DNA of 64,000 nucleotides, taken from a virus (taxonomy: Duplodnaviria; Caudoviricetes). Numbering within the stretch: position 1 is the stretch's first letter; each line of letters begins with the position of its first letter. Below are positions 21,490 to 35,956 of this stretch, one piece after another. The notes below the pieces were generated by a model. It was given only the letters and a program-made list of their open reading frames with translations. It did not search any database and was not told where the DNA came from. Location: positions 40,923-104,922 of the IMG/VR virus record IMGVR_UViG_2824317532_000001; one strand, given 5' to 3'. Position numbers and translations under genes: made by a program.

Positions 21490-21834
21490 ATGAAGATCAG
21501 CCGCGAGCCCGCGCTGTACCTGACCCTGTTCGCGACGCTGGTACGGCTGCTCGCCGCGTTCTGGCTCGACCTGTCCGACGGCCAACAGGCCGTTCTCAAC
21601 GCGACCGCCACCGCGGTCGCGGGTCTCATCGTCGCCGTCTGGGTTCGCCGCGACGGGCAGGTCGCCGCCCTGCTCGGTGTCGTCCAAGCCGTGCTTGCCC
21701 TGGCGGTCGGGTTCGGCGCGGACCTGTCCGCGGAGTCGCAGGCGGTCATCATGTCGTTCGTCGGCACCGCCGCCGCAATGTTCGTCCGCACGCAGGTCGA
21801 CGCGAAAACGCCAGCCGTCGTACACGCCGACTAG
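21490..21834 (+). CDS. Holin
   Basis: SREPAL N-terminus, four TM segments, FVRTQV C-terminus typical of actinophage holins; GGAGG RBS. Confidence 0.8.
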   Translation: MKISREPALYLTLFATLVRLLAAFWLDLSDGQQAVLNATATAVAGLIVAVWVRRDGQVAALLGVVQAVLALAVGFGADLSAESQAVIMSFVGTAAAMFVRTQVDAKTPAVVHAD

Positions 21835-22005: not shown

Positions 22006-22893
22006 CTAACGCCGCCAGACGTTGACCGTCGCCGTCTCCAGCGAATCAGCACCCTCCGGCCCCTTGACGTGACTAGCAATCCACGTCGGGCGACGCAACG
22101 ACCGCTGCGGGCCGTACGCCTGATCCCGCCAGTGCCCGCGGACGATCCACCGGTGCTTGTAGTGTCGGCCGGGCTGGTCGGGGTCGAGTGGAGGTTGCCC
22201 GGAGAGTCGGTACTGTCGGCGCAACTCCACGAGGGTCACCTCGGGATCACCGCGGCCAGCTCGGCCGTAAGCAGCCCGGATCTTGCGTTCGACCTCGACG
22301 GGAACCCGGTCGATGACCGTAGGCTGTTGCATGAGTGCCCACGCCGCAGCCAGGGTGGTCAGCACGGTCCTGTCCCGGTCCGGCAGCTCGCCCGGGTCCT
22401 GCCAATTGTCGTCAACGGCCAAACTCTGCCCGGCAATTGGTACCAGCGGCGGCACCGCAGTGGTGTCGATCCGGGCACCGCGCTCGGCAAGCTGGTCTTC
22501 GAGCCGGCCGCGGGCCACATAGTAGGAGACCAGCAGCCCTTGCGGGTGCGGACCCCACGACACGGCATCCACGGGGATCGGCACGTTCTCGTAGTCGAGG
22601 GTGCCAATGCCGCCGTCGAAGACCAGCAAACCATGAGTCGAGGGCCGATCTGCATCCGTCCACCGCACCTGCGGGATCGTTTCAGCGGCGCCGACGGACA
22701 ACGCGGCCATCTCCGGCGCCACCCAATACAGATCGGCAACGCCGAGGCTGCGGGCAACGTGGTCGAGTTGGGCAGCCGTGTCGTCGCGCCCGGATCGGGC
22801 CAGACTCGCACGCAGCGCGCTGCCTGGGTCGGCAAGCAGGCGTTGCAGCCCGTCACGGACCTTTGGGAGGCGGGAGGCTGTCCAGTTACTCAC
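22006..22893 (-). CDS. Conserved phage hypothetical protein (C-terminal VRGHWR..YGP...WI..H.KGP motif)
   Basis: GTGA-coupled to the Aca2-like gene; recognisable basic C-terminal motif. Confidence 0.65.
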   Translation of the reverse strand: MSNWTASRLPKVRDGLQRLLADPGSALRASLARSGRDDTAAQLDHVARSLGVADLYWVAPEMAALSVGAAETIPQVRWTDADRPSTHGLLVFDGGIGTLDYENVPIPVDAVSWGPHPQGLLVSYYVARGRLEDQLAERGARIDTTAVPPLVPIAGQSLAVDDNWQDPGELPDRDRTVLTTLAAAWALMQQPTVIDRVPVEVERKIRAAYGRAGRGDPEVTLVELRRQYRLSGQPPLDPDQPGRHYKHRWIVRGHWRDQAYGPQRSLRRPTWIASHVKGPEGADSLETATVNVWRR

Positions 22894-23303
22894 GGCTGGC
22901 CGTCCGGGGCAGGGTACGCAATGCGCAGGCCTGGCACTTCAAGGGCGATCCGGGCGACGACTGCCCGGTGCCACGAGGCCGGGAACTCGACCTCAGGGTG
23001 GGCTGCGTGGTACTCGTGGTCGTTGCGGTACACCAGCACGCCCGGGTCGGGAATGCCGACGAGTTTCTCGACACATCCGCCGATGAACTCGCCGGTACGC
23101 CGCTCTATATCCTCCATGGCCAGTCGCACCCCGTCGGGGATCGGGTATTTTCCCTGCTCCCAGTGGCGCACGGTGCGGGCCGAGACTCCGAGGTGGCCGG
23201 CGAGCCAGTCGCCGGTGAGGCCGAGGTGTTCGCGGACGACCCGGAACTCCGCATCGGTCATGCGCTCGTCTTCCGGCATGCCGGGCGGGTCGGTGTACTC
23301 CAC
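22890..23303 (-). CDS. HTH + DUF1870-like regulator (Aca2/YdiL-like)
   Basis: MTDAEFRVVREHLGLT..WLA..LGVSARTVRHWEQGKYPIPDGV; YRND.EY...PASWHRAVVAR. Confidence 0.7.
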   Translation of the reverse strand: MEYTDPPGMPEDERMTDAEFRVVREHLGLTGDWLAGHLGVSARTVRHWEQGKYPIPDGVRLAMEDIERRTGEFIGGCVEKLVGIPDPGVLVYRNDHEYHAAHPEVEFPASWHRAVVARIALEVPGLRIAYPAPDGQP

Positions 23304-23322
23304 GGTGTCTCCCTTTGGGTAA

Positions 23323-23358
23323 ACAGTGACCCCGGCCGAGACGGTCCGGGGTCACTGT
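23323..23358 (-). terminator. Stem-loop between the candidate acr and aca genes
   Basis: acagtgaccccgg-N10-ccggggtcactgt, 13-bp perfect stem. Confidence 0.6.
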
Positions 23359-23371
23359 CGGATGGTTCTGG

Positions 23372-23680
23372 TCAGGCAGGCTCGACTTCGGCGTACATGG
23401 CGTTGTCGACGATGTCCCAGGCGGCGGTGCGGGTCCAGGCGTTCTTGGTGAGCATCTCGTCGGCCTCGTTGGCTGCCTTGGCGAGCTTGTCCTCGTCGTT
23501 CACCAGCACGGTCAGGTCGGCGGTGAAGATGATGTTGTCGCTCATCGCGTACTCGGCGGTTTCGTTGCCGGCGTCGTCGAGTCGGTAGCCGGTGATGGTG
23601 GCGGTGCCGATGCTGAGGTCGCAGACGTTATCCGCGACTACATCGGGGGCGGTGGCGATGCAGGCGAAGTGAGTGGTCAT
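23372..23680 (-). CDS. Small acidic protein, candidate anti-defence (Acr-like)
   Basis: 102 aa, about 19 D/E versus 5 K/R; GAAGGA RBS; first gene of the operon upstream of the Aca2-like gene. Confidence 0.6.
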   Translation of the reverse strand: MTTHFACIATAPDVVADNVCDLSIGTATITGYRLDDAGNETAEYAMSDNIIFTADLTVLVNDEDKLAKAANEADEMLTKNAWTRTAAWDIVDNAMYAEVEPA

Positions 23681-23732
23681 GGCCGGTTCCTTCCGGTGGG
23701 GTCTGGGGCTGTTTCCCCTGACCGCTGACACC

Positions 23733-23757
23733 ACAGTAGCTTCCTAAAATAGGAAGC
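23733..23757 (-). promoter_or_regulatory. Promoter -10 (TACTGT) with adjacent palindromic operator GCTTCCTA-AAA-TAGGAAGC
   Basis: Perfect 8-bp inverted repeat 23739-23757 abutting the -10 at 23733-23738. Confidence 0.65.
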
Positions 23758-24098
23758 GATAGGGGTTGTATCGAACGAAGGACCCCGCAGCCTCTCTCTG
23801 GTTTCGGAGCACTACTCGTAGCCGGCCGCCAGCAACAGCCCGGTCAGCGCGTCTCGCAGCTCGGCGGTGTCGAGCAGCGCGATGTCTACGGAAACGCCGA
23901 CCATGTGGGCGGCGTTGATGGTCAGCCACGTCGGCCCGTCACCGGTCTGGGTGAGACAGGCGGTGACTTCACCGCGGTCACCGATCCGGCGCCGGGCGCC
24001 CACCCGAAACCGCCGGGATCGGTGCCGCACCAGACGGCCAGCACCTTCGTCGTGTTCGCACCACGGCGGGTGCCCGGCACGCTCGTTGCGGGGCCGGG

Positions 24099-24821
24099 TC
24101 ACCGTGACCGCCTCCACTGGAGACGCTTGCGGACCCGGGCTGCGGCTTTCCGGCGCCCGCGTCTGCGGATGGGGCAGCCCGCCCACACCCATACCGGCAG
24201 CACCAGGGACGCCACCACCACGGCGAGGGCCGTCTCCTGACGCCACTGCCCGTACACCAGCAGCGCGAGCCAGCCAGCCAGCAGCAACACCGCCTGTGCG
24301 ACGCCGAGGCCGGTCAGATGCCGCCGCCGCGAACTCCATGGGCGCCGGACCTTCGGCTGACGCGTTGGCTGTACGGGTGCGGACTCCCACTCGAGCAGGC
24401 CCTCTCGCCGCCGCTCGTCAACGGGCACCCACCGCGGCCGACCCTCCCGGTCGTCGCGTTCATGGCGCTGGTCGACCAGCACCCACTTCGGCACGTGGCG
24501 GGGGTTGTCCTCGTTCAACAGCCAGTTCAGGCGAGGCCGCTCACCAGTCGGTGGCTCTTGAATGAACAGGCGTTCCATCTCGTCGAGTTCGACGTCGGTA
24601 CACAGGCCTTCCCACAGCACTCGCGGTGATCCGACGATCAGGTCGGCCCACGGCTGCGAGTCGCGGTGCTGGTTCTCCCGGCCCCGGCCACGTTGCCGAG
24701 TTTGGCCGACGTAGTCGTTGCGGACGATCTGCCCCGTGTCGTGGTCGATGACGTCGAGGCCGTAGACGACACCCCGGTAGCGGGCATCGGCGCGGCGTCG
24801 GGACGAGTAGGTCGCGGTCAT
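24099..24821 (-). CDS. GIY-YIG-like domain protein with two C-terminal TM helices
   Basis: GVVYG...DYVGQTRQ...R..QH...E..FI...PRLN; hydrophobic C-terminal helices and basic tail. Confidence 0.6.
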   Translation of the reverse strand: MTATYSSRRRADARYRGVVYGLDVIDHDTGQIVRNDYVGQTRQRGRGRENQHRDSQPWADLIVGSPRVLWEGLCTDVELDEMERLFIQEPPTGERPRLNWLLNEDNPRHVPKWVLVDQRHERDDREGRPRWVPVDERRREGLLEWESAPVQPTRQPKVRRPWSSRRRHLTGLGVAQAVLLLAGWLALLVYGQWRQETALAVVVASLVLPVWVWAGCPIRRRGRRKAAARVRKRLQWRRSR

Positions 24822-24880
24822 TGAGGCACTTCCCCACCGGGCAGATCGCCGTACAGCGATCCGGCCGCTACCCTCGGCTC

Positions 24881-25075
24881 ATGTCCGATGCTGAGATCGC
24901 CCGGCAACTCCAGCGGCTCGTCGATGACGCCGAGAAACGAGACCGGGTCGCCGCCGAACGCCATGCTGCCCTCATCAAAGCCGTCACAGTCGGGTTCGCC
25001 GTGGTAGCCAAAGAGATCCGCGATGGGTTCACCCTGATGCAGCACACCATCATCGACGAGTTCCGGCAGCGCTGA
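24881..25075 (+). CDS. Small coiled-coil protein antisense within the tra operon
   Basis: Strong GC3 bias on +; TACCCT -10-like box shortly before ATG. Confidence 0.45.
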   Translation: MSDAEIARQLQRLVDDAEKRDRVAAERHAALIKAVTVGFAVVAKEIRDGFTLMQHTIIDEFRQR

Positions 25076-25077
25076 CG

Positions 25078-27510
25078 TCACGCCATCACCTCGTCCAGCA
25101 CACCGATCTGCTCGGCCCCGGACTCGGTCAGCCAATAGCCGCCACGGCCATCGGTGTCGAGGATCTGCTCCCCCGCCAGCTTGTTGACCGCGTTGGTGCA
25201 GGCCCGAGTCTTGATGACGGATCGGACAGCGGCAGCCAGGTCGCCGAACTGGACCGGGTCGCGGTCGCCGTCGAGCCACCGGTCGGCGAAGAACCGGAGT
25301 ACCGCCTCCCGGCCGCCCGCGGGCGGGGTGGTGTCGCCGGGTGCGGAGTCCAGCAGGTTCGACGGGATTCCCGCACCGAGGATCTCGGCCGGGTCCATGT
25401 TGTCGAACGCTTCGAGCCGCTTCCACCGGTCCGCGTATAGCGGGCCTGCCGCTCCGAGCACGGCCGTTTCCAGGCTGACGGTGTCACCCCTGGTCATGAC
25501 GTCCCACAGGTCGCCGGCGTAATCCGATCGCATCCGCATGCGGGCGGTCGCCGAGTTGTAGCCGACCCCTGCAGCGGTGGTGCCGTCCTCCCATTCGGCC
25601 GGCAGGGCGGACGGGTCGCCGGGCATCTTCCCGCCGGGCCAGGCGGCGGGGCCGGTGAGCCGGTCGGCGGTGCGGAACACGGTGACGACGCCGGAGGCGA
25701 GCTGGGCGCGCAGCACACTGTCTTTGAGTTCGGACAGCAGCGGTGACTGCACCAACAGCCGCACCTTCACGTTGGCCTTACGCCCGGACTTGGCGAGCAG
25801 CGCCAACAGTTTGACGATCTCCTTGCCGACGTCGGGGTCGTTCATCGGCAGGTGCGCCTCGTCGATGGTGATCGACAGCAGGGGGAAGTCCGGGGAGACC
25901 TCCACGTATTTGACGCGCCGCTGCACCACTGTCCCGTCGGGCCGGGTCTCGGTGACCCGCATCCGTGTGATCAGCAGGTTGCGGGCGAGCATCACCGTCA
26001 CGGCGGTGCGCAGCATGACGAGGATTTCCTCGTTCGTCGGCGCGAACCAGTCGACACCGTCGCGCACGTCACCGAGAGACTGGCCCATCTGCGGGTCGCC
26101 GACCCACGACACCACCCGCCCGGACTTGCGTTCCAGGGCGAGGAGCAGGTTGACGTATTCGCTCTTGCCGGATCCGGTGCAGCCGGCGATGAGTTCCATG
26201 AGGGCGCCCCAGCCGGGCCGCCAGAACGGGTGCCGTCCGCGGTTGCCGTCTTCGAGGGTCATGGTTTCGGCGGTGCCAGTGGTGAGGTCGATGCCGTCGC
26301 CGTTCCAGCGGCTGCCGGTCGAGAGTGGGCTGGTCCGCTGGACGAGGATCATGGCCCGGTTCGCGTCGAGGGGATCCGCGATGATCGACACCATGGAGGT
26401 GCCGACCGAGTAGGCGCGGGCGATCTTCCGGACCGGTTCGGGCATGTCGAACTTCTCGGGATCCAGGTCCGAGTCGTCGTGCGCCACGATGATCGCCGAC
26501 CAGCCACCGACCGACGCCTGAATGTTCTCGAGGCTGGTGCCGTGCAGCACCCGACCCTTCGCGGACACCTTCTCCCAGCGGGCGAGCACGTACTCGCGCA
26601 GCAGGTCTTCCTCGCTGGGCTGCGGCGTGTCGTCGTACAGGTCGTCCTCGTCGTCGAGCGGCACAGGCGGGCGGAGTGCCTGGGCGCGCCGGTCAGCCAG
26701 CCACCGCCGGTACGGGCGGGAGCCGACCACCCCGAGCCCGAACAACGCGGTGAGCGCGACTGCCGCATGGTCAGCGAAGCCGATCACGTCGGTTAGTTCG
26801 ATCCACAGTCCGGCCGCTGCCGCCAGGTAGCCGGCGCCGCGCGCGCGGCGGGCAATGGTGTCACGGGTGAGTTCCTCGTCCGTCTCGGCCTGCCGGCGTA
26901 GCCAGGCACGGGTCATCCACCAGGACCCGGCCACGATGGCGGGGATCGCCGCGAACTGAGCGACCTCTCCCGCCAGTGACAGGTCAGCGACGTCCGCCGC
27001 CACACCCGCCATCCCCACAAGGCTGGTAGCGGCGGCACTGTTCACAGACCCCGTGTGATCCCGGTACAGGCGCCCCCACGGAATGGAGATGCGCCGGTCG
27101 CTGGTCTTGTGAAGGCGTACCCCGCAGATACCGCACAGCGGGCGTTCGATCTTCGACTTGGCGGAGAACCACTGCCCGCTGTCCGGGCACTCGGGGCACT
27201 CCCATTCCACGTGGGTGACCTCGCCGCTGTCGTTGACCGGCACCGGCTGCCGCCGTGCTTTCACGGTCTGCCCGTTCGGGCCGGCGTGGTGCCAGGAGAA
27301 CGACACAGCGCCGGACGGCAGCAGCAGCTTGCCGTCCAGGTCACGCGACGCCTGACGGGCACGGCCCTGCTGCGGTGCGCCCGGAGGTCCGCCGTTCGGT
27401 AGCGGCACGGGCCGGTTCTCGGTCTTCACGGAAAAACTCCAGGTGTGGTCGGGGTGGTGGTGCCGGGCTGGTGCCGCAACCGCCAAACCAACAGAGGGTT
27501 CGGCGATCAC
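25078..27510 (-). CDS. TraB/FtsK-SpoIIIE-family DNA translocase
   Basis: Walker A IAGCTGSGKS, Walker B ITIDEAH, SGRKANV arginine region, N-terminal CxxC..CxxC plus TM helices, C-terminal winged-helix-like domain. Confidence 0.85.
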   Translation of the reverse strand: MIAEPSVGLAVAAPARHHHPDHTWSFSVKTENRPVPLPNGGPPGAPQQGRARQASRDLDGKLLLPSGAVSFSWHHAGPNGQTVKARRQPVPVNDSGEVTHVEWECPECPDSGQWFSAKSKIERPLCGICGVRLHKTSDRRISIPWGRLYRDHTGSVNSAAATSLVGMAGVAADVADLSLAGEVAQFAAIPAIVAGSWWMTRAWLRRQAETDEELTRDTIARRARGAGYLAAAAGLWIELTDVIGFADHAAVALTALFGLGVVGSRPYRRWLADRRAQALRPPVPLDDEDDLYDDTPQPSEEDLLREYVLARWEKVSAKGRVLHGTSLENIQASVGGWSAIIVAHDDSDLDPEKFDMPEPVRKIARAYSVGTSMVSIIADPLDANRAMILVQRTSPLSTGSRWNGDGIDLTTGTAETMTLEDGNRGRHPFWRPGWGALMELIAGCTGSGKSEYVNLLLALERKSGRVVSWVGDPQMGQSLGDVRDGVDWFAPTNEEILVMLRTAVTVMLARNLLITRMRVTETRPDGTVVQRRVKYVEVSPDFPLLSITIDEAHLPMNDPDVGKEIVKLLALLAKSGRKANVKVRLLVQSPLLSELKDSVLRAQLASGVVTVFRTADRLTGPAAWPGGKMPGDPSALPAEWEDGTTAAGVGYNSATARMRMRSDYAGDLWDVMTRGDTVSLETAVLGAAGPLYADRWKRLEAFDNMDPAEILGAGIPSNLLDSAPGDTTPPAGGREAVLRFFADRWLDGDRDPVQFGDLAAAVRSVIKTRACTNAVNKLAGEQILDTDGRGGYWLTESGAEQIGVLDEVMA

Positions 27511-27528
27511 GGGTGGAGTCCGGCAGGG

Positions 27529-28776
27529 TCAGCGGCCGTTCAGCACGGACCCGTCGGCGCCATTGAGCTGCGACTCCAGCTCCTGCAGCCGCCGCAGCTC
27601 CTCCTCGGCGGCCTGCACACCCTGCTTGGCGGCGCTGATCGCGTCGATCAGCGCCTTGATGTGGGTGGGCGACAGCATGTCGCGGGCCACGGACATGCCG
27701 CCGACCGCGCAGTCGTCGACTCTCTTCGACATCAGGAACGCCTCGATTCGCTCCGCGGCGGCGCCGGCGGAGGTGATGGCCTCGTCGATGACGTCGAGGG
27801 AGGTGTCGATGCGGGTCAGGTCGTCGCCGAGCAGGCTGCACTCGTTGAGGGCGGATTCGACGTCGTGGGCGTCGCCGGTCGCGGCGGGCATGGTGTCGGT
27901 CATGGGGTTCTCCTCTTCGTCACGTGTCGTGCTGTGGTTGTCGACGGGCGGAGTGTGGCTGTGGGGGGCGGTGCAGGTAGGGCAGCCGGGCCGGCGGCAG
28001 TTCCGCCCGTGCCTGTGGTCTGCGGCGATCCGTTTCGTCACGCACCGGCTGCACAGGGCGGCGTCCGGGTCCGGGGTTGGCCCGCAGCCGGGGCAGTCGG
28101 CCGCGACGCGGTCGGGGATCGGCGTGGGCCGCCACATCGGACGCCCGCGGCCGCCGTGCACGGTGTCGATGTGCTGCTGGCCGGCGGCTGCTGCCGCGTC
28201 GTCGTCGGGGTAGCCGTCGCAGCCGATACCGCAGTCGTCGCAGTCCCAGCGGTGCAGCAGTTTCGTTGCCGATGGTTTGGGGGTGCCGGCCGGGTCGGTG
28301 AACTTCGGTTCGGTTGAGGCGTCACCTGCCGGTGCCGGTGTGGTTTCGGTGTCGCCGGGGTGTCGGGCGTCGCCGACCGGGCGGACCAGCATTTGAGCGA
28401 GCCGGGCGAGGCGTTCTTTCCACAGCGGTCGCACGCGGCGGGCCGGGCGCTGTTCCTCGGCGGCTGCCCGGTCCTCGTCGCGCTGGGCGTGCTTCTCGGT
28501 GCGCCGCCGGTCGTGGGCGGCGATCACGTCGGCGAGGGCGTCGCCCCAATAGACGCGGGCCACGTCGCCGATGGTCGGCTTGTCCTCACCGGGCCGGGGC
28601 CGCCGGTTCTCGGTCTTGGCCTGTTTCGCGGCGAGCCGCAGCTTCTCGGTTTCGGCACGTAGCCTGGCCTTGGTGAGGTGGGGCGGTTCCTGGCCTCTCA
28701 TGAGGTGCACCAGGTCGCTGACCGGCCGGAAACCGGTGATCAGCGATGCCAGGAGCATGCAGACGATGAACTCCAC
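27529..28776 (-). CDS. Tra-associated protein (N-terminal hydrophobic, Cys-rich middle, C-terminal helical bundle)
   Basis: Directly upstream of traB; internal RBS+ATG at 27903. Confidence 0.6.
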   Translation of the reverse strand: MEFIVCMLLASLITGFRPVSDLVHLMRGQEPPHLTKARLRAETEKLRLAAKQAKTENRRPRPGEDKPTIGDVARVYWGDALADVIAAHDRRRTEKHAQRDEDRAAAEEQRPARRVRPLWKERLARLAQMLVRPVGDARHPGDTETTPAPAGDASTEPKFTDPAGTPKPSATKLLHRWDCDDCGIGCDGYPDDDAAAAAGQQHIDTVHGGRGRPMWRPTPIPDRVAADCPGCGPTPDPDAALCSRCVTKRIAADHRHGRNCRRPGCPTCTAPHSHTPPVDNHSTTRDEEENPMTDTMPAATGDAHDVESALNECSLLGDDLTRIDTSLDVIDEAITSAGAAAERIEAFLMSKRVDDCAVGGMSVARDMLSPTHIKALIDAISAAKQGVQAAEEELRRLQELESQLNGADGSVLNGR

Positions 28777-28779
28777 GGG

Positions 28780-29151
28780 CTACCGCCCACCGCGCGGCAT
28801 CGCCTTGTGGGAGACGAGGAAACTGATGACGACCGCGGCCAGGGCCAGGCCGACGGTGGTCGTGCCGACCCAGTCGCCGAGGTTGCGATCGGCCCAGTCC
28901 CACAAGCTGGTCAATCCGTCGCTGATCTTCTCGGTGGCCTTGCCGTTCATGCCGACGATCAGCGACGGGACGACGAACGCGCCGATGACGGCGTACTGGT
29001 TGGGGGTCTTGTCCTTGTAGATATCGATGCCGATGACAGTGAGAACGCCGAGGACGGCGATGACCTGCACGACGGTGGCGTAGCCAGCGCCGACGAGCCC
29101 GGCGCCGCCGATGATGGCGAGCACGAACCCGAACCAAGCGAGAACCTTCAT
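28780..29151 (-). CDS. Spd-like small membrane protein
   Basis: Four hydrophobic segments; in the traB operon; GAAAGGA RBS. Confidence 0.6.
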   Translation of the reverse strand: MKVLAWFGFVLAIIGGAGLVGAGYATVVQVIAVLGVLTVIGIDIYKDKTPNQYAVIGAFVVPSLIVGMNGKATEKISDGLTSLWDWADRNLGDWVGTTTVGLALAAVVISFLVSHKAMPRGGR

Positions 29152-29176
29152 GACGTATGTGTCCTTTCCGGGGTGG

Positions 29177-29608
29177 TCAGTGGGTGACGAGGTAGATCAG
29201 GTAGATGGCGAACGTGCCGGTGCCGGTCAGCAGGATTCGGGCGGGGTGGATGAGCAGCCACTTGACGCCGTCGAGCGCCAGTGCGACCACGACGGCGACG
29301 GGCCGGTAGCAGTAGGCCCACGCCTGGTAGGGCTTCCACGGCTTGTCGAGGTGGGCGGTGTGGTCGGTGTGCCACACGGTCTTCGCCGACGGCGACTGCT
29401 CCTCGGTGATCCACGAGTCGGCGGCGTCGGTGTAGACGACCCTGGCCAGCCGGCGGACGGCGACAGCTCGGGGCATGCGGCGGGTGCGGCTGTCTGTGGG
29501 CGCGTCGGGGTGGATGCGCACCACCTTCGCCGGCGGGGTGAGTCGGGGGGCGGCGGGTGACACCGGGCGGGCCGGGATCACCCCGTCGAACGCTTCACTG
29601 ATCGACAT
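29177..29608 (-). CDS. Spd-like membrane protein
   Basis: WLLIHPARILL + C-terminal TM, reminiscent of plasmid/AICE transfer-region proteins; GAGGAGG RBS. Confidence 0.55.
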   Translation of the reverse strand: MSISEAFDGVIPARPVSPAAPRLTPPAKVVRIHPDAPTDSRTRRMPRAVAVRRLARVVYTDAADSWITEEQSPSAKTVWHTDHTAHLDKPWKPYQAWAYCYRPVAVVVALALDGVKWLLIHPARILLTGTGTFAIYLIYLVTH

Positions 29609-29792
29609 GGCGGTGCACCTCCTCAGGGTTGCATTTGCTGGTGACAGGCACTGCTGTGTAAGATCGCGCGCCCGCAGGCGTGCAGGCCTACAGGCCTGCG
29701 CTCGCCCTGTGCAGTCGGGTCGGGCACTGCCACAGCGACTGCTATGCCATGACTGCCATGCCCGGTCGCCGGTCCGTGCTGGCTTCGCGGGC

Positions 29793-30029
29793 TCACCGCG
29801 GGTTCCGCCGATCGGCTATTTCTGCGATCGCTTTCGCGAGTTCGTTGCGGCCGTGCTCGTCGAGTTCGTCACCGACTGCCTTCGCGAACTGGCAGGCCTG
29901 TTGGAGCCGCTGACGCCCGTTCGCCGCCTTGCGGATCTCTTCGGTGAAGAACGCCAACCGGCGCTGACCTCGGCGGGTACGCCGTGCCGCCGAACGTTCT
30001 TCGGCGGTGGTTCCACGAACGGCTTTCAA
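29793..30029 (-). CDS. Small basic hypothetical protein
   Basis: GAGGAG RBS + TTG. Confidence 0.5.
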   Translation of the reverse strand: MKAVRGTTAEERSAARRTRRGQRRLAFFTEEIRKAANGRQRLQQACQFAKAVGDELDEHGRNELAKAIAEIADRRNPR

Positions 30030-30151
30030 GCGACTTCTCCTCAGTGTTTGCGCAGGTCAGGCCACAAGCGCGATGACGTAGACGAAGCCGATCACCATGA
30101 CGGTGAGCACAATGAACGGAACACGCGGGCTCGCCCGGCGCGGCATGCGCT

Positions 30152-30508
30152 TCACCGGGCGTTCCCGGAAGGGGTGCGCAGCAGCACGACCGCGCCGATC
30201 ACCATGGCCGCGAAGCTCGCGGTGATCGGGTATCCGACCAGGTCAGGACGGGTCATGGCGGTTTGCGCGAGTCCGGTGAGCGCGCCGGCGAGCACAATGA
30301 GCGACCCGGCGGTGTTGATGTGCTGGTCGGTCGCCGTCTCGGCCACGGGGGCGGCCCGCCGGTTCATCTCGGTATGAGCGGCACGCATCAGGGCGAGCGT
30401 CTGCTCGGCGGTGAGGTCCGGGAGTTCCGCCTTGTTGGAAGCGAGCAGCCCATGGCACTCGTCGAACACGACGATGACGGGGGCCAAGTCGGTGGGGGTG
30501 GTGGTCAT
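30152..30508 (-). CDS. Small membrane protein with N-terminal Walker-B-like peptide
   Basis: PVIVVFDECHGLL; two C-terminal TM helices; GAGGAG RBS. Confidence 0.55.
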   Translation of the reverse strand: MTTTPTDLAPVIVVFDECHGLLASNKAELPDLTAEQTLALMRAAHTEMNRRAAPVAETATDQHINTAGSLIVLAGALTGLAQTAMTRPDLVGYPITASFAAMVIGAVVLLRTPSGNAR

Positions 30509-30714
30509 CGGGTCTCCTCGGGGGTCTGGTGGTTATCGCGTTGGGCCACAGTCCTCATGCGGCGGTAGGTGGCGATGACACCGAGGCTCGCAACGAGCCA
30601 CACCCACGCCGCCTGGTTCGGAAACTCACCGGCGTACGCATCGCGGATCCCGATGACACCGGCGGCGATGGCTGTCACCGCGAACAGCCGATGCACGATG
30701 CGAAGCCATCTCAT
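30505..30714 (-). CDS. Small two-TM membrane protein
   Basis: ATGA overlaps at both ends. Confidence 0.55.
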   Translation of the reverse strand: MRWLRIVHRLFAVTAIAAGVIGIRDAYAGEFPNQAAWVWLVASLGVIATYRRMRTVAQRDNHQTPEETR

Positions 30715-32216
30715 TGGCCAACCGCCCACGGCTCACCGCTGTCATCGTCGGCACTGTCATCGGCTGCCTTATCGGTGGCCGCCTCACGCCACGCCGCGAC
30801 GAGCCGTGGGATACGGGCCCCGTACCCGGCGCCGGTGGTCTTGCGGACCGCATAGTCCGACCACTCATGGTTCGGGTCGCTGTGCACGGCGAGCATGGCC
30901 TGAACTGCTTCTTCGTCGGTCATGAGCTGCTTGCTCGCCGCCGCTGATGCCACCTTCGATGAGGCATGTTTCGGCCCCTTCGATGAGCCGTTCTTGGGAT
31001 GCCCATGGCGGTACTGGGCAAGGTTTGTCAGCTTCGCCGCGGCGAGCTTCGCGTTGAACTCGTCAGTGAGTTCCTTGGTGCGCTTGGCCAAAGCCTCATC
31101 GCGTTCGGTGTCCTTGGCGGCGATGATGTTCGCCTTCTCGGTCTCGTGGGCGGCGATGAGTGCCTCCCGGTCGGCGCCGGCCTGGTCGGTGAGTTCCCGC
31201 AATGAGGTGTCGGCGGTGACGCTCTTGGCGGTCGCCTCATCGAGGGCGGCGGTCGTCTCGGTGAGTTCGGTGTGCGCGGCGGTGAGTGCCTGCATGACAT
31301 CGGCGATGCGGTTGTCCCGGTCGGCGATGGCATCGGCCTGCCGTTCGGTGATGGCACGAAGTTCGGTGGTGGCCGCAACCAGTTGCCGGACGCGGGCGGC
31401 CGGGTTGATGCGCAGCCACCAGCCGGGCTGGTCGGTGGATTCGACGGCCCACCGGGTGCGGAGTTCGGTGTTGTAGCCCTCCCACGCCTGACGGGGGTCG
31501 GTGACGTAGTGGTCGATGGACCAGCGGCGGGCGAGGTAGGAGCGGATCGGGAATGAGCGGATCCGTTCGCCGGAGAATGTGGCGCCGGCTTCGTCGACGC
31601 GGCCTTCGCGGAGTAGTTGGACGCGTTGTTCGCGGCGGGTGTGCAGGCCCCACAGCCAGGGGCTGAGTAGGGACAGCATGCCGAACGCGACGGCGGCGGC
31701 GTTGATGCCGAGCGGGCCGGTGTCGTCGGCGAAGTGGGCGTAGTTGATGGCGGCGACACCGGCGGCGATGAGGTATGACCAGCGGCGGAGCCGGGCGGCG
31801 GTGTTGGTGGCCTTCTTGAGCAGCGCGTCGTGGGCGTGCCAGCCGACGTAGACGGACACGGATTCGATGGCGAGCGCGATGACGAGGGCGAGGACGACCT
31901 TGCCGAGGGTGGGCCAGGTGTGGGGTGCGACTTCTTCGTAGAAGAACGCGACCTGGCCGTAGACGGCGGCGCCGTTGACCAGCAGCAAGGGCGCGTACAT
32001 GAGCCGTTTGCCGAGGTCGGTTTTCGAGGGCCGGCGGGTGAGTGCGTAGACGGCGAGGCCAGTGACCAGGGCGGCGAGGATCGCGCAGGTGATGGTGACT
32101 GCGGGGCTGCCCGCGGCCTGGTTCCAGGCAGCGTCGTACCAGCTCGGGTCTGCGGCGGGTTGTGGGGTGCCGGAGACGGAGCCGGTGTCGGGGCGCAGCA
32201 CGGCGGTCAAGGACAT
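30711..32216 (-). CDS. SpdA/DUF2637-like multi-TM, coiled-coil, C-terminal HTH protein
   Basis: ALAIES..VY...A..INYAH TM block, long coiled coil, WSDYAVRKTTGAGYGARIPRL HTH-like end. Confidence 0.6.
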   Translation of the reverse strand: MSLTAVLRPDTGSVSGTPQPAADPSWYDAAWNQAAGSPAVTITCAILAALVTGLAVYALTRRPSKTDLGKRLMYAPLLLVNGAAVYGQVAFFYEEVAPHTWPTLGKVVLALVIALAIESVSVYVGWHAHDALLKKATNTAARLRRWSYLIAAGVAAINYAHFADDTGPLGINAAAVAFGMLSLLSPWLWGLHTRREQRVQLLREGRVDEAGATFSGERIRSFPIRSYLARRWSIDHYVTDPRQAWEGYNTELRTRWAVESTDQPGWWLRINPAARVRQLVAATTELRAITERQADAIADRDNRIADVMQALTAAHTELTETTAALDEATAKSVTADTSLRELTDQAGADREALIAAHETEKANIIAAKDTERDEALAKRTKELTDEFNAKLAAAKLTNLAQYRHGHPKNGSSKGPKHASSKVASAAASKQLMTDEEAVQAMLAVHSDPNHEWSDYAVRKTTGAGYGARIPRLVAAWREAATDKAADDSADDDSGEPWAVGQ

Positions 32217-32284
32217 GTAAGCAACGTACCACGCAACTTCATAGGTTGCTAGCAACAAATTAGAAGTTGCTTTAAGGTCGTTGC
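32217..32284. promoter_or_regulatory. Divergent promoter region with symmetric GCAAC/GTTGC operator array
   Basis: GCAAC at 32221, 32233, 32252; GTTGC at 32245, 32266, 32280; central palindrome GTTGCTAGCAAC; AT-rich. Confidence 0.65.
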
Positions 32285-32587
32285 ATGACCACGACACGCC
32301 AGCGGGGCTCAGTACCCCTTATGCAGCGGATCCGGTCCGCGCGCCTGCCCTCCCCCGAGGAGCGATTGGCCATCAGGAAAAGGGCACGCGTTAGCCGAGA
32401 AGACATCGCACGCGAACTCCGGGCACAGGGCATCGCCGTGACAGAGGGCGCCGTCAAGTGGTGGGAGAAGCCGAAGGCCGAAGGCGGAGTAGACCCTCGA
32501 CCGGACAAGGCGATTTTGTACCGGCGGCTGCTCGAACAGCTGCAAGCGGAGACCGCCAAGACGCGGACCGCTCAACCCTCCGCATAA
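32285..32587 (+). CDS. XRE/Cro-like HTH regulator
   Basis: LPSPEERLAIRKRARVSREDIAREL...VTEGAVKWWE. Confidence 0.75.
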   Translation: MTTTRQRGSVPLMQRIRSARLPSPEERLAIRKRARVSREDIARELRAQGIAVTEGAVKWWEKPKAEGGVDPRPDKAILYRRLLEQLQAETAKTRTAQPSA

Positions 32588-32698
32588 GGACGGCCGCGGT
32601 GCACGAACACCACGGCCGTCTCGCCATACCCCGCCCTTGACTACGGAGCTGACTCCCTTGACGTTAGACCACGTTCCTGAGGCGCCGGGAGGTACCGG

Positions 32699-34546
32699 AT
32701 GACGGTCCCCCACCAGGACCAGCGCCACAAGACCCGTAACGGGCATCCCGCCGCCGCCCAGTCGCCTGGACCCGGCAATCTCGCCGCGTTGCGGGTTCAC
32801 GAGCAGACGGTTCTGGGCTGGCTCCTGTCGCCGGCCAACCATGCCGAGGCGGAGGAGCGAGTTCGCGACCTCAGCATCCGGCATCTTGTTGAGCCTGCCC
32901 ACCGCGAGATCTTCGGCAGCATCCTGGCGCATGTCGGTGCCCCGAATCTGGCGCTGCTTGTCACCGCAGACCTGGCGACGGCGGATGCTCACCGTTCGGT
33001 GAAGGCGCTGCCAGGTGGGATTGCCGCATACCTGTCCGACTGCAAGGACTACGCCGACCTTTACGGCACACGGGAGTTCGCTTTCCACGTGCGGCAGGTG
33101 AAGGACGCCTACGTGCGCCGGCGGCGGCTGGAGCTCCACTCTCAGGCCGCGCGGGCTCTCGAGGAGGACAACCTCCAGGCGTACGACGCCGCGTTGGCGA
33201 ACATGCAGCATCTCGACGCGGATGCGGAACCTGCTGAGGATCCCGGAAGCGCACGCGACCGGGCACTGCAGCGGGCCATCGGCGATGCGGCTGCTGGTCG
33301 GTATTTGGCGATGCTGGCGGAGGAGATTCTTCGAACCCGGGCGCGGCGCGAGGCCCGCCAGTTCGTGGACGCCGAACTGGCTGACGTGTCACCGCTCGAG
33401 TTGCCCGTCTCGCTGACTGATCTTCTCGGCGAGGACGATGAACAGGACTCGTGGCGGATGTCCGGGTTGTGGCCGTCCGGTGCTCGGATCTTGTTGGCCG
33501 CGGGCGCGAAGTCGGGCAAGACGACGACGGTGGGGAACGTGGTGCGTTGCCTGGCCGACGGTGACCGGTTTCTGGGGATCGCCGACGTCGAGCCGGTGGC
33601 GCCGGGCCGGACTGTGGCGGTGCTGGATTACGAGATGCCCCGTGCGAAGGTGAGGGGCTGGTTACGTGACCAGCGGATCCGGAACACCGATGCGGTGCTG
33701 GTGTGGACGGAGCGAGGCAGGGCGGGGCGCTTTGATACTCGCGATCGGGCGGCACGAGTGCTGTGGGTGGAGCGTTTACGGACGGCGAACGTGTCGGTGT
33801 GGGTCATCGACTGCCTGTCGCCGGTGCTGTCGGCGTTGGGTATCGATGAGAACAACAACACCGAGGTCGGTGCTGTTCTCGACGGGATCAACACGATCGC
33901 TGCTGAGGCCGGCATTGATGATGTCCTGCTGATTCATCACATGGGGCATGGGGCGGAGCGGTCTCGTGGCGCGTCGCGGTTGATTGGCTGGCCGGATGTG
34001 AATTGGAAGTTGACTCGGCAGCGGGATGAGAAGGATCCGTCGGCGGAGCCGGATCCGAATGCGACCCGGTATTTCTCGGCGTACGGCCGGGATGTGGATG
34101 TTCGTGAGGGTCGGTTGGTGTTCGAGTCGGAGTCGCGGCATCTGACGTACATGGAGGGCGGCCGGAAGCAGGACGATGACACGGTCGCGCTGGGCAAGTT
34201 GTTGGTGTTTGTGCGGGATCATCCTGGGCTCGGGACTCGTGGCTTGCAGGAGGGCGCTGCGGCGCTGCTGGGGAGCAGGGATACGGTGCGGAAGGCGTTG
34301 AAGGCGGCGACGGCCAAGGGTTACGTCGTTGCGGCGGATGCTCCGCGTAACGGCTTGCAGCACACGATCTCGGCGTTGGGCCGGGGACAGATCTTGGCGT
34401 TGTCGTCGGTTCCGGTGAGTGACGCGGAGTTCCTTGCCGGTCCGCGGGGGAACGTGGTGTGCGACTGCGGCTACTACATCACTTCGGCGGCGTTCGAGGC
34501 TGGCGCTCGGTCGTGCATCGAGTGTTTGAAGGCGGTGCCGGCGTGA
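32699..34546 (+). CDS. DnaB-N-terminal-like + AAA_25/RepA-family (SF4) helicase
   Basis: EQTVLGWLL...PAHREIF (DnaB N); AAGAKSGKTT Walker A; VIDCLS Walker B; LIHHMGH..ERSRGAS...W.D; C-terminal HTH and Cys motif. Confidence 0.8.
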   Translation: MTVPHQDQRHKTRNGHPAAAQSPGPGNLAALRVHEQTVLGWLLSPANHAEAEERVRDLSIRHLVEPAHREIFGSILAHVGAPNLALLVTADLATADAHRSVKALPGGIAAYLSDCKDYADLYGTREFAFHVRQVKDAYVRRRRLELHSQAARALEEDNLQAYDAALANMQHLDADAEPAEDPGSARDRALQRAIGDAAAGRYLAMLAEEILRTRARREARQFVDAELADVSPLELPVSLTDLLGEDDEQDSWRMSGLWPSGARILLAAGAKSGKTTTVGNVVRCLADGDRFLGIADVEPVAPGRTVAVLDYEMPRAKVRGWLRDQRIRNTDAVLVWTERGRAGRFDTRDRAARVLWVERLRTANVSVWVIDCLSPVLSALGIDENNNTEVGAVLDGINTIAAEAGIDDVLLIHHMGHGAERSRGASRLIGWPDVNWKLTRQRDEKDPSAEPDPNATRYFSAYGRDVDVREGRLVFESESRHLTYMEGGRKQDDDTVALGKLLVFVRDHPGLGTRGLQEGAAALLGSRDTVRKALKAATAKGYVVAADAPRNGLQHTISALGRGQILALSSVPVSDAEFLAGPRGNVVCDCGYYITSAAFEAGARSCIECLKAVPA

Positions 34547-34559
34547 CTGGAACGGGTCG

Positions 34560-34796
34560 AGTGTGCGGAGTGTGCGGGAGTGTGCGGCTTGATCGTCCGC
34601 ACACTCGATTTCGCAGTGATGATTTTGAATTTTCGCAGCTCAACCCAGTGTGCGGGAGTGTGCGGAGATCAAAAACAGGCGAAAAGCGGCCTTGACCTGC
34701 GAAAACGCCGTCGAGCGAGTGTGCGGCGGCTTAAGAAAGCCGCACGCTCGCACACTCACTCGCCTAAACGATCTCCGCACAGTCGTCCGCACACTC
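34560..34796. repeat. Cluster of ~10 AGTGTGCGG repeats in both orientations (candidate origin iterons)
   Basis: Direct copies at 34560, 34569, 34579, 34647, 34657, 34718; inverted or degenerate CCGCACACT-like copies near 34597, 34740-34756, 34775, 34787; AT-rich tract gattttgaatttt. Confidence 0.7.
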
Positions 34797-35641: not shown

Positions 35642-35956
35642 ATGCCCGACTGGCCCGACAAGTGGAAGCTGGACAACTTCCCGGAGGCTCTGCACACGTG
35701 GACCATCGCCGCGGAGCCTCCGCCGGAGGTCCTCGCCGAGGTGGAACGCTGGCATCACAGCCGCCAGGACGACCCGTACGGCGACACCGACCCTTTCGCC
35801 GAAGAGGGCATGTTCGACGACTACTTCGGGTTGCGGGCCAGGGTGTACGACCTGTATCGAAGGCCGGTGCAGGTCGATGGCCGGCCCGTGGTCTGCTACT
35901 ACGAGGTGCAGGAGAACGAGCATCGTGTTGTTTTCTCGCACTTCGGTGTGATTTAG
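35642..35956 (+). CDS. Hypothetical protein, possible RelE/ParE-fold toxin
   Basis: 104 aa; helix-DPY-strands ending VVCYYEVQENEHRVVFSHF; AAGGAG RBS; follows Panacea-like gene. Confidence 0.45.
   Translation: MPDWPDKWKLDNFPEALHTWTIAAEPPPEVLAEVERWHHSRQDDPYGDTDPFAEEGMFDDYFGLRARVYDLYRRPVQVDGRPVVCYYEVQENEHRVVFSHFGVI

Follow-up and report, generated by a model that had tools for sequence, protein, structure and literature searches.

The closest published precedent for the locus described here is the Streptomyces plasmid-phage pZL12/phage ZL12 (GQ919031; Zhong et al. 2010, J Bacteriol 192:3747). According to its GenBank annotation, pZL12 has a block on one strand in which 73c encodes a membrane protein, 72c a large protein and 71c an FtsK-like ATPase, with small ORFs upstream of the block, a divergent GntR gene and a pump gene adjoining head genes. 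A second relevant system is Tra/TraB-clt-Spd, exemplified by Tra, SpdA, SpdB and KorA of pIJ101 and by TraB, TraR and SpdB2 of pSVH1 (Thoma et al. 2015, PMC4447253). FtsK/SpoIIIE-like genes are also present in the cultured Streptomyces phages Jaresh, AndoPrime and Geonosis, where the reports treat them as developmental or replication accessories and describe no operon with membrane partners (PMC13587820, PMC11536984).

The DNA analysed here, a 64-kb stretch termed the window, is part of a large temperate siphovirus-type prophage belonging to a lineage spread through the Micromonosporaceae. Over the pump gene it is 100% identical to a contig of Actinoplanes campanulatus JCM 3059. The head and packaging genes and the ends of the element lie outside the window. 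The prophage keeps a resident operon on the minus strand (23812-32297), placed between the tail/lysis genes and a plasmid-type replicon. This operon comprises genes for a multi-pass membrane protein, a 415-aa protein, an ATPase (the pump) and a GIY-YIG-like protein, along with four small membrane ORFs. All of the module parts named in an initial annotation were found on this strand where it had placed them, as judged from an ORF list and a GC3-based gene map. This is a new lineage of phage with a plasmid-type pump, the principle being already known from one plasmid-phage, pZL12. A dormant tailed virus of a filamentous soil actinomycete, equipped with a membrane DNA pump of the type by which actinomycete plasmids hand DNA from filament to filament, may also spread without virus particles.

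Comparison of the locus with known systems

The view of pZL12 as a partial precedent was borne out: it is a tailed-phage genome with the same one-strand block of membrane protein, large protein and FtsK-like ATPase, and its 71c protein is a remote homologue of the window pump (hhalign 92%, E 6.6e-7, 197 columns), with BLASTP identity of 23% over 155 residues only. The window has, in addition, a pump with an N-terminal Zn-ribbon, a GIY-YIG protein with membrane helices and, next to the operon, a Rep-iteron replicon. pZL12 is a circular Streptomyces plasmid with ParA/ParB, whereas the hosts of the window lineage are Micromonosporaceae and, of its relatives, the closest one examined in full has an integrase and is integrated in the chromosome.

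The Tra/TraB-clt-Spd system has in common with the window that one FtsK-like pump, ending in a winged helix, is encoded in an operon together with several small membrane proteins, that the element bears a GntR and that a plasmid replicon adjoins the tra genes. The window differs in that no 8-bp clt array was found, the membrane proteins had no detectable relation to SpdB, the candidate promoter regulator is a small non-GntR protein and a GIY-YIG nuclease domain lies beside the pump. The carriers also differ, being a tailed prophage of well over 60 kb in one case and a plasmid or AICE of ~9 to 17 kb in the other. An actinophage-encoded FtsK-superfamily ATPase is common to the window and the cultured Streptomyces phages; the pump did not match PHROGs phrog_1358, 3551 or 13700 (FtsK/SpoIIIE-like, cultured Streptomyces phages) at E ≤ 1e-3.

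Family relationship of the pump

The pump gene (25078-27510, minus strand) is an 810-aa ORF with a Zn-ribbon, hydrophobic helices, a motor domain and a C-terminal winged helix; the database copy is 783 aa, 27 codons shorter at the start and 100% identical, and the likely start is at 27429. Its annotation as an FtsK-type ATPase with a Zn finger, TM segments, Walker motifs and a wHTH was confirmed from the ORF motifs, namely GCTGSGKS (Walker A), TIDEAH (Walker B) and a four-cysteine CPEC...CGIC, and from an AF2 model. The Walker A and B motifs and three of the cysteines were invariant or nearly so in 22 homologues, down to 28% identity. In the model (mean pLDDT 76.9), an FtsK-like motor is followed at the C-terminus by a winged helix of helix-helix-helix-strand-strand topology, and its top PDB matches were FtsK motor domains (6t8o, E 4.5e-14).

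In the HMM check suggested at the outset, plasmid_TraB was the sole NCBIfam match (E 3.7e-9). Pfam FtsK_SpoIIIE remained sub-threshold (E 0.023, 14.6 bits vs a cut-off of 24). The NCBIfam score was also well under the curated TraB cut-off (35.6 vs 800 bits), and both shortfalls were counted against the explanation favoured below, as was the moderate hydrophobicity of the N-terminal TM helices (peaks of only 1.2 to 1.6). The bona fide pIJ101 Tra likewise misses the NCBIfam TraB model. With hhalign, the family profile aligned to pIJ101 Tra over 334 columns extending from the motor through the C-terminal wHTH (96.6%, E 5.7e-10) and to a canonical plasmid FtsK/SpoIIIE protein over 148 columns (70%, E 4e-5). 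The ATPase profile was matched by 408 cluster representatives at E ≤ 1e-30. By tblastn, relatives were detected on 129 actinomycete plasmids and in none of 50,697 phage records, ZL12 included; one of these plasmids, a linear Streptomyces plasmid without annotated phage genes, carries a GntR, a DUF2637 protein and a related pump in the same layout. The sole TraB match, the alignment with pIJ101 Tra and the plasmid-borne relatives support the ATPase being a distant relative of plasmid Tra/TraB proteins, nearer to these than to FtsK or EccC.

Our best explanation of the whole, held with slightly better than even confidence, is that a virus-borne Tra/TraB-type pump moves the element between hyphae beside virion spread. 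With the oligomeric state, DNA binding, direction of pumping, substrate and regulation that we infer, the element would replicate from the Rep-iteron origin upon excision or infection, and the pump, a hexamer anchored in the membrane alongside its partner proteins, would bind the element via the C-terminal winged helix. Double-stranded copies would be driven across hyphal septa and into touching hyphae, and the phage could colonise its own and neighbouring mycelia without virions, besides spreading as particles.

A possible but doubtful alternative is that the pump serves the lysogen or phage otherwise than by cell-to-cell transfer, for example in spore inheritance, with element DNA being cleared or segregated across the septa of sporulating hyphae or sporangia, or in superinfection exclusion, with incoming foreign DNA being kept out or expelled and perhaps cut by the membrane GIY-YIG nuclease. 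The fold, which is that of septal FtsK, and the accessory roles accorded to FtsK-like genes in accounts of cultured Streptomyces phages are in keeping with such a role. The closest characterised relatives, however, are plasmid transfer proteins and not FtsK, the wHTH aligns to that of pIJ101 Tra, and the pump family makes up, with a GntR and a DUF2637 protein, a module of plasmids without phage genes.

Membrane partners and the GIY-YIG-like protein

Related loci around TraB homologues (n = 26) are designated L followed by a number. The 'helical partner' of the initial annotation is the 415-aa ORF at 27529-28776 (minus), with an N-terminal hydrophobic segment, a Cys-rich middle and a conserved helical C-terminus; its C-terminal 150 aa are 52 to 68% identical in L001, L004 and L005, and the full protein is 38% identical in L006. 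Four small minus-strand ORFs with hydrophobic segments encode 123 aa (28780-29151), 143 aa (29177-29608; kept in L001, L002, L004, L005 and L006), 118 aa (30152-30508) and 74 aa (30505-30729), and two doubtful ORFs (29623-30029, minus) lie inside this stretch (28780-30729). Neither the 415-aa protein nor the four small ORFs matched a Pfam, PHROG or NCBIfam family. The small membrane proteins noted earlier correspond to these four ORFs and to a 240-aa ORF with two C-terminal TM segments.

The first gene of the operon (30711-32216, or to 32297 from a GTG; minus) encodes 501 aa (528 aa from GTG 32297), with four to five hydrophobic helices and a coiled coil; its C-terminal domain is conserved. 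A description of this product as a multi-TM coiled-coil-HTH protein held for the hydrophobic segments and the coiled coil, the HTH at the C-terminal end being only a weak lead. Pfam DUF2637 was matched by 2 of 11 aligned relatives (best 7e-8) and the atlas score to DUF2637 clusters was 0.85, making a DUF2637-like identity a lead only. This protein was not similar to pIJ101 SpdB or pZL12.73c, and the accessory proteins generally had no detectable similarity to these or to the accessory proteins of a related plasmid, a result counted against transfer; the operon encodes a lineage-specific set of membrane proteins.

The 240-aa protein (24099-24821, minus) comes after the pump gene in 12 loci and combines an N-terminal GIY-YIG-like domain, in which Y20, Y37, G39, R48, H52, E83 and N99 were invariant among 12 homologues, with the two C-terminal TM helices. 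Its AF2 model (pLDDT 78.4) aligned in VIA-align with I-TevI (1ln0; Z 6.2, rmsd 2.6, 76 aligned) and UvrC (1ycz; Z 5.6); Foldseek yielded no significant match, and atlas leads were at 0.84. We regard it as a membrane-anchored, predicted GIY-YIG-type nuclease domain. The canonical Tra system moves unprocessed DNA and has no nuclease beside the pump, a point counted against transfer. A membrane-anchored nuclease domain at this position suits DNA destruction as well as processing, and this, together with AbiEii, a further defence-type cargo in the window, fits a non-transfer role.

Downstream of the GIY-YIG gene is a small conserved ORF (23812-24110, minus) with tblastn matches in L004, L008, L011, L013, L017 and L020; in the 192-aa ORF at 23812-24390, conservation is confined to the C-terminal part. 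More distal genes on the operon's strand are a 120-aa ORF (23372-23734), an XRE/Aca2-like HTH gene (22890-23303; Pfam HTH_31 1.1e-7, Aca2_YdiL 1.6e-4; 81% identical in L011 and 70% in L021) and a 295-aa ORF (22006-22893). A 13-nt perfect hairpin lies at 23323-23358.

Promoter region and regulators

An A+T-richer divergent promoter/operator region (32217-32284) lies between the operon and a plus-strand HTH gene for a small basic protein of 100 aa (32285-32587). This protein, a candidate local regulator, shows 56% identity in L004, and L001 and L020 have it too. The region contains the palindrome GTTGCTAGCAAC (32245-32256), flanked by GCAAC and GTTGC half-sites and present as a single exact copy in the window. 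Palindrome and half-sites were found at the same place in Paractinoplanes maris (L004) but not in L001. By binding to the GTTGCTAGCAAC operator, the small divergently encoded protein probably holds the operon off in the lysogen.

The GntR noted elsewhere in the window was present at 57269-57994 (minus), 25 kb from the operon, and belongs to the KorA/TraR-type family (Pfam GntR 1.4e-12, UTRA 1.1e-19). Its homologues are located upstream of the TraB homologue, at 5 to 8 kb in L002, L005, L007, L009 and L018 and at ~9 kb in L025. The pump gene and its vicinity yielded no clt-like 8-bp array, nor did the relatives share one, a result counted against transfer and in favour of a non-transfer role.

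Rep-iteron replicon

On the far side of the promoter region is a plus-strand gene for a Rep-like AAA_25 (RepA/DnaB-type) protein (32699-34546; Pfam AAA_25 2.6e-24, PHROGs primase/helicase families), followed by an iteron array in lower-G+C DNA (34559-34796) with 11 copies of GAGTGTGCGG in both orientations, 7 exact and 4 with one mismatch. No par genes were seen in the window. Relatives have iteron arrays at the same position, with ACCTGTCC in L008/L020 and TGTCACAA in L013/L017. The motif follows Rep type and not TraB: Rep identity was 67 to 76% within an iteron-motif group vs 29 to 31% between groups, with TraB at 77 to 80% in all those pairs. The idea of a phage-plasmid/AICE hybrid fits, as the Rep-like gene and iterons adjoin the module, and the co-location of a plasmid-type replicon with the pump argues against a non-transfer role.

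Residency and integrity of the module

On its other side the operon is flanked by a plus-strand siphovirus-type tail block (5798-19284; PHROGs phrog_5, phrog_117 [3e-25], phrog_4197 [7.6e-77], phrog_5313 [1.6e-85] and phrog_826) and a holin gene (21490-21834, plus; phrog_9752, E 2e-27), which also lies beside the TraB module in L001 and L008. Within the block, PHROGs identified a neck/tail completion protein, overlapping tail chaperone ORFs, the tape measure (9010-12333) and a 964-aa tail protein (14981-17875); also present are the major tail protein (7242-7802; PHROGs, Pfam Phage_TTP_17), an HNH endonuclease (14333-14938) and ORFs of 594, 139 and 320 aa, all on the plus strand. An intact-looking tail and lysis block had been noted; tail genes and holin were confirmed by PHROGs, and no endolysin was recognised in the window with PHROGs or Pfam.

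In a check of synteny between traB and phage genes, structural or lysis genes lay within 10 kb of the TraB homologue in 12 of the 26 loci and, after a 40-kb extension, in a 13th (L005). In 11 of the loci, a scan of the larger ORFs revealed no phage gene inside the 10 kb, and this was counted against the favoured explanation. The tail-to-TraB arrangement recurred in relatives whose TraB was 29 to 34% identical. The 964-aa tail protein was 46 to 52% identical whether TraB was ~72% or ~30% identical, indicating that the slot was kept while its content was exchanged. In P. maris the module is deep inside a complete ~81-kb prophage with the order integrase, early genes, RecET, DnaBC, TerL, portal, capsid, tail, TraB module and host-like genes, the one integrase being at the far end, ~58 kb from the module. 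As the initial annotation had stated, no integrase or att-like boundary was found: inside or around the block, the 64-kb window showed neither an integrase nor a tRNA, and direct repeats of ≥20 nt resembling att sites were absent. The conserved synteny, the remote P. maris integrase and the absence of these boundary features support the module being an old, conserved, resident part of the prophage and not a recent AICE insertion, in agreement with that annotation.

These data also bear on whether the 23- to 39-kb block is a separate AICE or integrated plasmid beside or inside the prophage, acquired by tandem integration or by targeting of a phage site and self-transferring with a recombinase in trans. 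The block does combine the Tra and Rep parts of an AICE, swapping of TraB types between otherwise similar phages suggests that it acts as a module, and the window's own element ends lie outside view. Against this, besides the missing boundary features and the single P. maris integrase, this location between the lysis and the early genes is shared by at least six Micromonosporaceae genomes, in which TraB identity falls as low as 29%, and the pump lies elsewhere in others (directly upstream of the terminase in Streptomyces relatives, beside head genes in pZL12), making a separate element very unlikely.

Decay of a defective prophage, with the module a relic without present function, would account for the lack of visible head and packaging genes and of a recognised endolysin, and for the interruption of the structural block by homing endonucleases. 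We consider this extremely unlikely, as the module ORFs are all open with coding-type GC3 of 0.83 to 0.93, relatives show no variation at the catalytic residues of the pump and the nuclease, the operator is kept in non-coding DNA across two genera, and relatives with full head, tail and terminase sets exist.

Phage genes and a TraB-like operon in the window

Genes in the window, which has a G+C content of 0.61 to 0.72, were called by third-position G+C. PHROGs and Pfam searches detected a siphovirus-type tail block on the plus strand (5.8-19.3 kb), consisting of a neck/tail completion protein, a major tail protein, two overlapping chaperone-type ORFs, a 1107-aa tape measure, a 964-aa tail protein and an interposed HNH homing endonuclease. 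This block was followed by a holin gene (21490-21834; phrog_9752, 2e-27). No endolysin was identified with these databases among the window ORFs, and no head or packaging genes were found within the 64 kb, head genes being detected in relatives only. Beyond the tail and lysis genes, the initial annotation had described an operon for an FtsK-type ATPase and membrane proteins; every feature listed there was present on the minus strand, from 32297/32216 to approximately 23.8 kb, and the observation was thus confirmed.

The ATPase (25078-27510; 810 aa, likely 783 aa), termed here the pump, carries the Walker A motif GCTGSGKS and the Walker B motif TIDEAH, both of which were invariant in 22 homologues. 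Sequence, an AF2 model and Foldseek all indicated a motor domain of the FtsK type in which both Walker motifs are intact. The model, built from the 22 homologues, had a pLDDT of 76.9 and contained the motor domain; its best PDB match was the FtsK motor (6t8o; E of 4.5e-14), followed by the conjugation coupling protein TcpA (8e-12) and then by EccC/EssC (EccC, 8e-9). A C-terminal winged helix was also modelled (helices 706-719, 728-734 and 741-753; strands 757-759 and 764-767) with a pLDDT of about 85-89, and this domain aligned with the C-terminus of pIJ101 Tra. The N-terminal region, a candidate membrane anchor, was modelled as long helices (126-252; pLDDT, 45-75), the hydropathy peaks of which, at 1.2-1.6, were slightly below the usual threshold.

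Curated HMMs, a search with which had been proposed in the initial annotation, hardly recognised the pump. The match to Pfam FtsK_SpoIIIE was sub-threshold (E of 0.023; 14.6 bits against a curated cut-off of 24 bits), while the one match in NCBIfam was to plasmid_TraB (NF041214; 3.7e-9), at 35.6 bits against a curated cut-off of 800 bits. The latter model is narrow: bona fide pIJ101 Tra had no match to it and pZL12.71c, the FtsK-like protein of a Streptomyces plasmid-phage, reached only 1.7e-4; the Micromonosporaceae relatives of the pump gave values of 1e-8 to 5e-19. A PHROGs search with the pump produced no match and a sequence search of PDB chains produced only a weak Zn-ribbon match to ribosomal protein eS31. 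Profile comparisons by hhalign aligned the pump family to pIJ101 Tra at 96.6% (E of 5.7e-10) over 334 columns, a span that opens with the motor and closes with the final helix of the winged helix, as compared with 92% (6.6e-7; 197 columns) for pZL12.71c and 70% (148 columns) for a canonical plasmid FtsK/SpoIIIE protein. By these profile comparisons and the single NCBIfam match, the nearer kin of the predicted pump are plasmid Tra/TraB proteins, with FtsK and EccC more distant.

Relatives of the pump were detected by tblastn on 129 plasmid records, mostly from Streptomyces, the alignments covering roughly one-third to one-half of the protein at <60% identity, and on none of 50,697 phage records. 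A search with the family profile recovered 408 cluster representatives at an E of ≤1e-30. One relative was present on a linear 81.8-kb Streptomyces plasmid that encodes ParAB and has no annotated phage genes, in the order GntR, small genes, a DUF2637 protein, small genes and pump; judged by gene content, this block is a plasmid version of the module. NZ_CP108729, a Streptomyces plasmid, has both a gene of the TraB-like clade and, at a distance of 4 kb, one for a canonical FtsK/SpoIIIE-type protein (phrog_1358, 1e-104; NCBIfam FtsK, 3.8e-126), located at 9458-11584 and 15698-18286. Members of the pump clade are usually annotated as 'hypothetical' or 'HTH domain protein'. As the clade escapes annotation with Pfam and PHROGs and bears such labels, it will be missed by surveys of conjugative elements and phage-plasmids.

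Partner proteins and a candidate operator

All genes of the operon are on the minus strand. The first (start at 32297/32216) encodes, as part of a tra-like operon, a multi-pass protein of 501/528 aa that combines 4-5 hydrophobic helices with a coiled coil or long helical region. Between this gene and that of a 415-aa protein lie six small ORFs, of which four encode hydrophobic segments and two are doubtful. The 415-aa protein, encoded upstream of the pump, carries a hydrophobic segment at its N-terminus, is Cys-rich in the middle and ends in a conserved helical region. The pump gene is followed by a gene for a 240-aa protein with two C-terminal TM helices and then by a short conserved ORF. Pfam DUF2637 was matched by 2 of 11 aligned relatives of the first-gene protein, and Atlas gave this protein scores of 0.85 and 0.83 to DUF2637 and a lead (0.78) to a cluster carrying SpdB-named Pfam families; these matches hint weakly at a DUF2637-like protein. 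Comparison of the 11-member alignment with pIJ101 SpdB and pZL12.73c by hhalign gave values of 1.5% and 0.3%, respectively. The accessory proteins exhibited no similarity to pIJ101 SpdB, to pZL12.73c or to the pump neighbors on plasmid NZ_CP119148. The membrane proteins of the operon are possibly functional counterparts of Spd proteins from outside the Spd family.

The 240-aa protein has a GIY-YIG pattern, with residues Y20, Y37, G39, R48, H52, E83 and N99 invariant in 12 loci. Its N-terminal domain was modelled with a pLDDT of about 90 and was aligned by VIA-align to I-TevI (Z of 6.2; rmsd of 2.6 Å over 76 residues) and to the UvrC N-terminal domain (Z of 5.6). Foldseek gave nothing significant with this model (E of >1) and a Pfam scan gave no match at 0.05. 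A canonical plasmid Tra/TraB system has no membrane-tethered nuclease beside the pump, whereas one is predicted here; the pump neighbor on NZ_CP119148 is unrelated to this GIY-YIG-like protein.

A 68-bp interval separates the first operon gene from a divergent 100-aa ORF and contains the palindrome GTTGCTAGCAAC, present as a single exact copy in the window and flanked on each side by GCAAC/GTTGC half-sites. This palindrome recurs, together with its half-sites, at the same spot in the related element of Paractinoplanes maris, where the small protein is 56% identical, while a different palindrome occupies the operator position in another related locus (L001). We infer from this arrangement that the 100-aa protein and GTTGCTAGCAAC form a local repressor-operator pair. 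The GntR gene that had been noted elsewhere in the window is real and is 25 kb from the operon; in several relatives, a GntR gene is situated 5-8 kb upstream of the pump.

Phage genes surrounding the module in related loci

The pump gene matched, at 100% identity, part of a 205-kb Actinoplanes campanulatus JCM 3059 contig. In 26 related loci (2 from IMG/VR and 24 from genomes), 10 kb on each side of the pump homologue was examined. Phage structural or lysis genes were found within 10 kb in 12 of the 26. The tail or holin proteins of the window were matched by tblastn in six loci (L001, the P. maris locus L004, L008, L011, L013 and L017), Pfam identified a portal and a prohead protease near the pump in L007, and PHROGs identified terminase, portal, capsid or minor tail genes near the pump in L009, L010, L014, L015 and L019. 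Locus L005 had no phage gene within the initial 10 kb; 40 kb more of sequence revealed genes for scaffold, protease, portal, DnaB and a capsid, the last 68% identical to its P. maris counterpart, in the same convergent arrangement. L006 and L016 share with the window only a 320-aa ORF of the tail region. In the remaining 11 of 26 loci, no phage structural or lysis gene was seen within 10 kb in partial scans: 16 loci were scanned for ORFs of at least 230 aa only (115 of 131, pump genes left out), and Pfam alone was used for L002 and L005-L007.

Among the Micromonosporaceae relatives, the tail protein was 46-52% identical to that of the window, and the pump was either ~72% or ~29-34% identical. 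By these identities, the module slot is conserved and versions of the module are swapped within it, as in ordinary phage mosaicism. In Streptomyces loci L007, L009, L014, L015 and L019, the pump was located 4-6 kb upstream of the large terminase and portal genes, a placement that differs from that in the Micromonosporaceae phages. The IMG/VR record of L002 (G006; 172.9 kb, 99% complete by CheckV) has its pump at about 114-116 kb and large-terminase matches at 31107-32309 and 154293-155765, 83 and 38 kb from the pump and on either side of it; this record may represent two phages or one very large element.

The P. maris element was examined from end to end. After host-type genes comes a tyrosine integrase (Pfam, 3.6e-18) at 257.2 kb, followed by XRE, GIY-YIG, C5-methylase, RecE/RecT, SSB, DnaC and DnaB genes, and then by the large terminase (287.1 kb), portal, protease, scaffold, capsid and tail genes. 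The TraB module (315.5-324.3 kb) comes next, then regulators and small genes; from about 338.1 kb the genes, NACHT and BTAD, are host-like. This gene order places the module about 58 kb from the only integrase seen, inside an element of ~81 kb. Comparison of the two ends, of which the right one is approximate, found no exact repeat of >13 nt.

An alternative was that the block is an actinomycete integrative and conjugative element (AICE), a class made up of Int, Rep and Tra functions (Ghinet et al. 2011, PMC3218068), lodged beside phage genes. Tra and Rep are present in the window. An integrase and att site of the block's own, beside Rep/Tra, were both sought there and neither was found, as the initial annotation had stated: there was no integrase among the scanned ORFs, no tRNA gene and no direct repeat of ≥20 nt able to bound the block. 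The structural reading of the initial annotation was supported, and structural genes of a tailed phage are, on the basis of homology, combined in one element with genes for plasmid replication and transfer.

A candidate replicon and the search for clt

Divergent from the operon is a Rep-like AAA_25 gene (32699..34546, plus strand; Pfam, 2.6e-24). Directly after it, in DNA of lower G+C content, are 11 copies of GAGTGTGCGG in both orientations (34559-34796). This was the only strong array in a window-wide octamer scan and was considered as a clt, the 8-bp-repeat recognition locus of TraB plasmids. Arrays were present at the same place in L008 and L020, with the motif ACCTGTCC and Rep proteins 67% identical, and in L013 and L017, with the motif TGTCACAA and Rep proteins 76% identical. 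Between these two groups the Rep identity was 29-31%, while the pumps were 77-80% identical in every pair. As the motif varies with Rep and not with the pump, the array was read as iterons of an origin and rejected as a clt; the GAGTGTGCGG array is probably, by this comparison, an iteron origin.

No repeat array was detected at or after the 3′ end of the pump gene, and no octamer array common to the relatives was found. Exact copies of CCGTCACC, 9-11 in number and all on the same strand, were observed within the first gene of the module, in its 3′ half, in L005 (5921-6217) and L021 (6189-6411); these runs are in phase with PTVT-type peptide repeats and were read as coding, though a DNA site could be hidden within them. 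The clt may otherwise be a dispersed or degenerate site. The missing clt candidate is the main gap for naming the module a TraB-clt system.

Proposed role of the module

On balance, we favor the view that this prophage has two means of spread, virions and hyphal DNA transfer. The main rival is that the pump serves another role, such as spore inheritance or exclusion. Under hyphal transfer, an excised copy would replicate from the Rep-iteron origin, double-stranded DNA would be pumped through septa and hyphal contacts, and the whole mycelium and its neighbors would be lysogenised without particles, receptors or lysis. More tentatively, temperate tailed phages whose hosts are mycelial actinomycetes, including those that integrate, may routinely keep a plasmid-derived pump and membrane-channel set, with a membrane nuclease in this lineage, as a third route of spread; we regard this generalization as somewhat doubtful. 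If it held, a lineage of 'conjugative prophages' with its own recognition site would extend across Micromonosporaceae and Streptomyces. Movement of the prophage between hyphae by the pump would mean that receptors and particles are not the sole determinants of host range and spread in these phages, and prophages could then carry genes through mycelial communities as plasmids do. A cultured, non-pathogenic host (A. campanulatus JCM 3059, by sequence identity), a defined operon, a candidate operator and a nearby origin open the question of phage versus conjugation to genetics.

The principle of a plasmid-phage with a transfer-type block has a published precedent in pZL12 (Zhong et al. 2010), which the initial annotation had cited as a partial one. 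In its GenBank annotation, pZL12 has a like-ordered block of membrane protein 73c, 72c, FtsK-like 71c and a divergent GntR, adjoining head genes, and it combines tailed-phage structural genes with plasmid replication and transfer genes as the window does. pZL12 itself is a circular plasmid with ParA/ParB, whereas no ParA/ParB was found among the scanned window ORFs and the relative in P. maris resides in the chromosome, where it has an integrase and is flanked by host-like genes. FtsK-like genes are also mentioned in accounts of cultured Streptomyces phages (PMC13587820, PMC11536984). Among the titles and abstract openings surveyed, none concerned a TraB-like module in Micromonosporaceae prophages. 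What is new is the Micromonosporaceae prophage lineage, integrated in the one relative examined from end to end; a pump clade that Pfam and PHROGs do not detect and that sequenced phages lack; and a Rep-iteron replicon adjoining the module, together with the conserved operator and the GIY-YIG partner.

Other features of the window

Megablast of positions 1-24000 and 23000-33000 against phages yielded no match, and that of 20001-45000 against plasmids yielded a single match of 93 nt. Only one sequencing run with this stretch was detected, a DNA run that is probably its source; no RNA run was listed. Homing-type endonuclease genes are inserted in the structural block, a GIY-YIG gene at 5123-5665 (minus strand) and the HNH gene at 14333-14938 (plus strand); in relatives, both the HNH gene and a 594-aa ORF are missing from the interval that separates the tape measure from the 964-aa tail protein. 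An XRE HTH gene, with a weak Aca2/YdiL match (1.6e-4), and a 295-aa ORF of no known family occupy 22006-23303 on the minus strand. The XRE/Aca2-like HTH protein is 81% identical in L011 and 70% in L021, with far less conserved neighbors.

An AbiEii-type nucleotidyltransferase toxin domain (36252-37016; Pfam, 5e-12) lies within 35642-37016, where small upstream ORFs could encode an antitoxin; this region looks like defence or addiction cargo adjoining the replicon. A DUF6879 protein and an HTH_31/DUF5753 regulator are encoded as a pair at 37929-39323 (minus strand) and occur at the same place in P. maris with 60% and 44% identity; the pair may constitute an immunity region. Finally, 3-4 tandem 24-nt units (AAGGTCCCTGAAAATCAGGG-like) at 58852-58956 encode a repeated KVPENQG peptide within a 419-aa ORF (58363-59622), the N-terminal HTH region of which is Rep-like.
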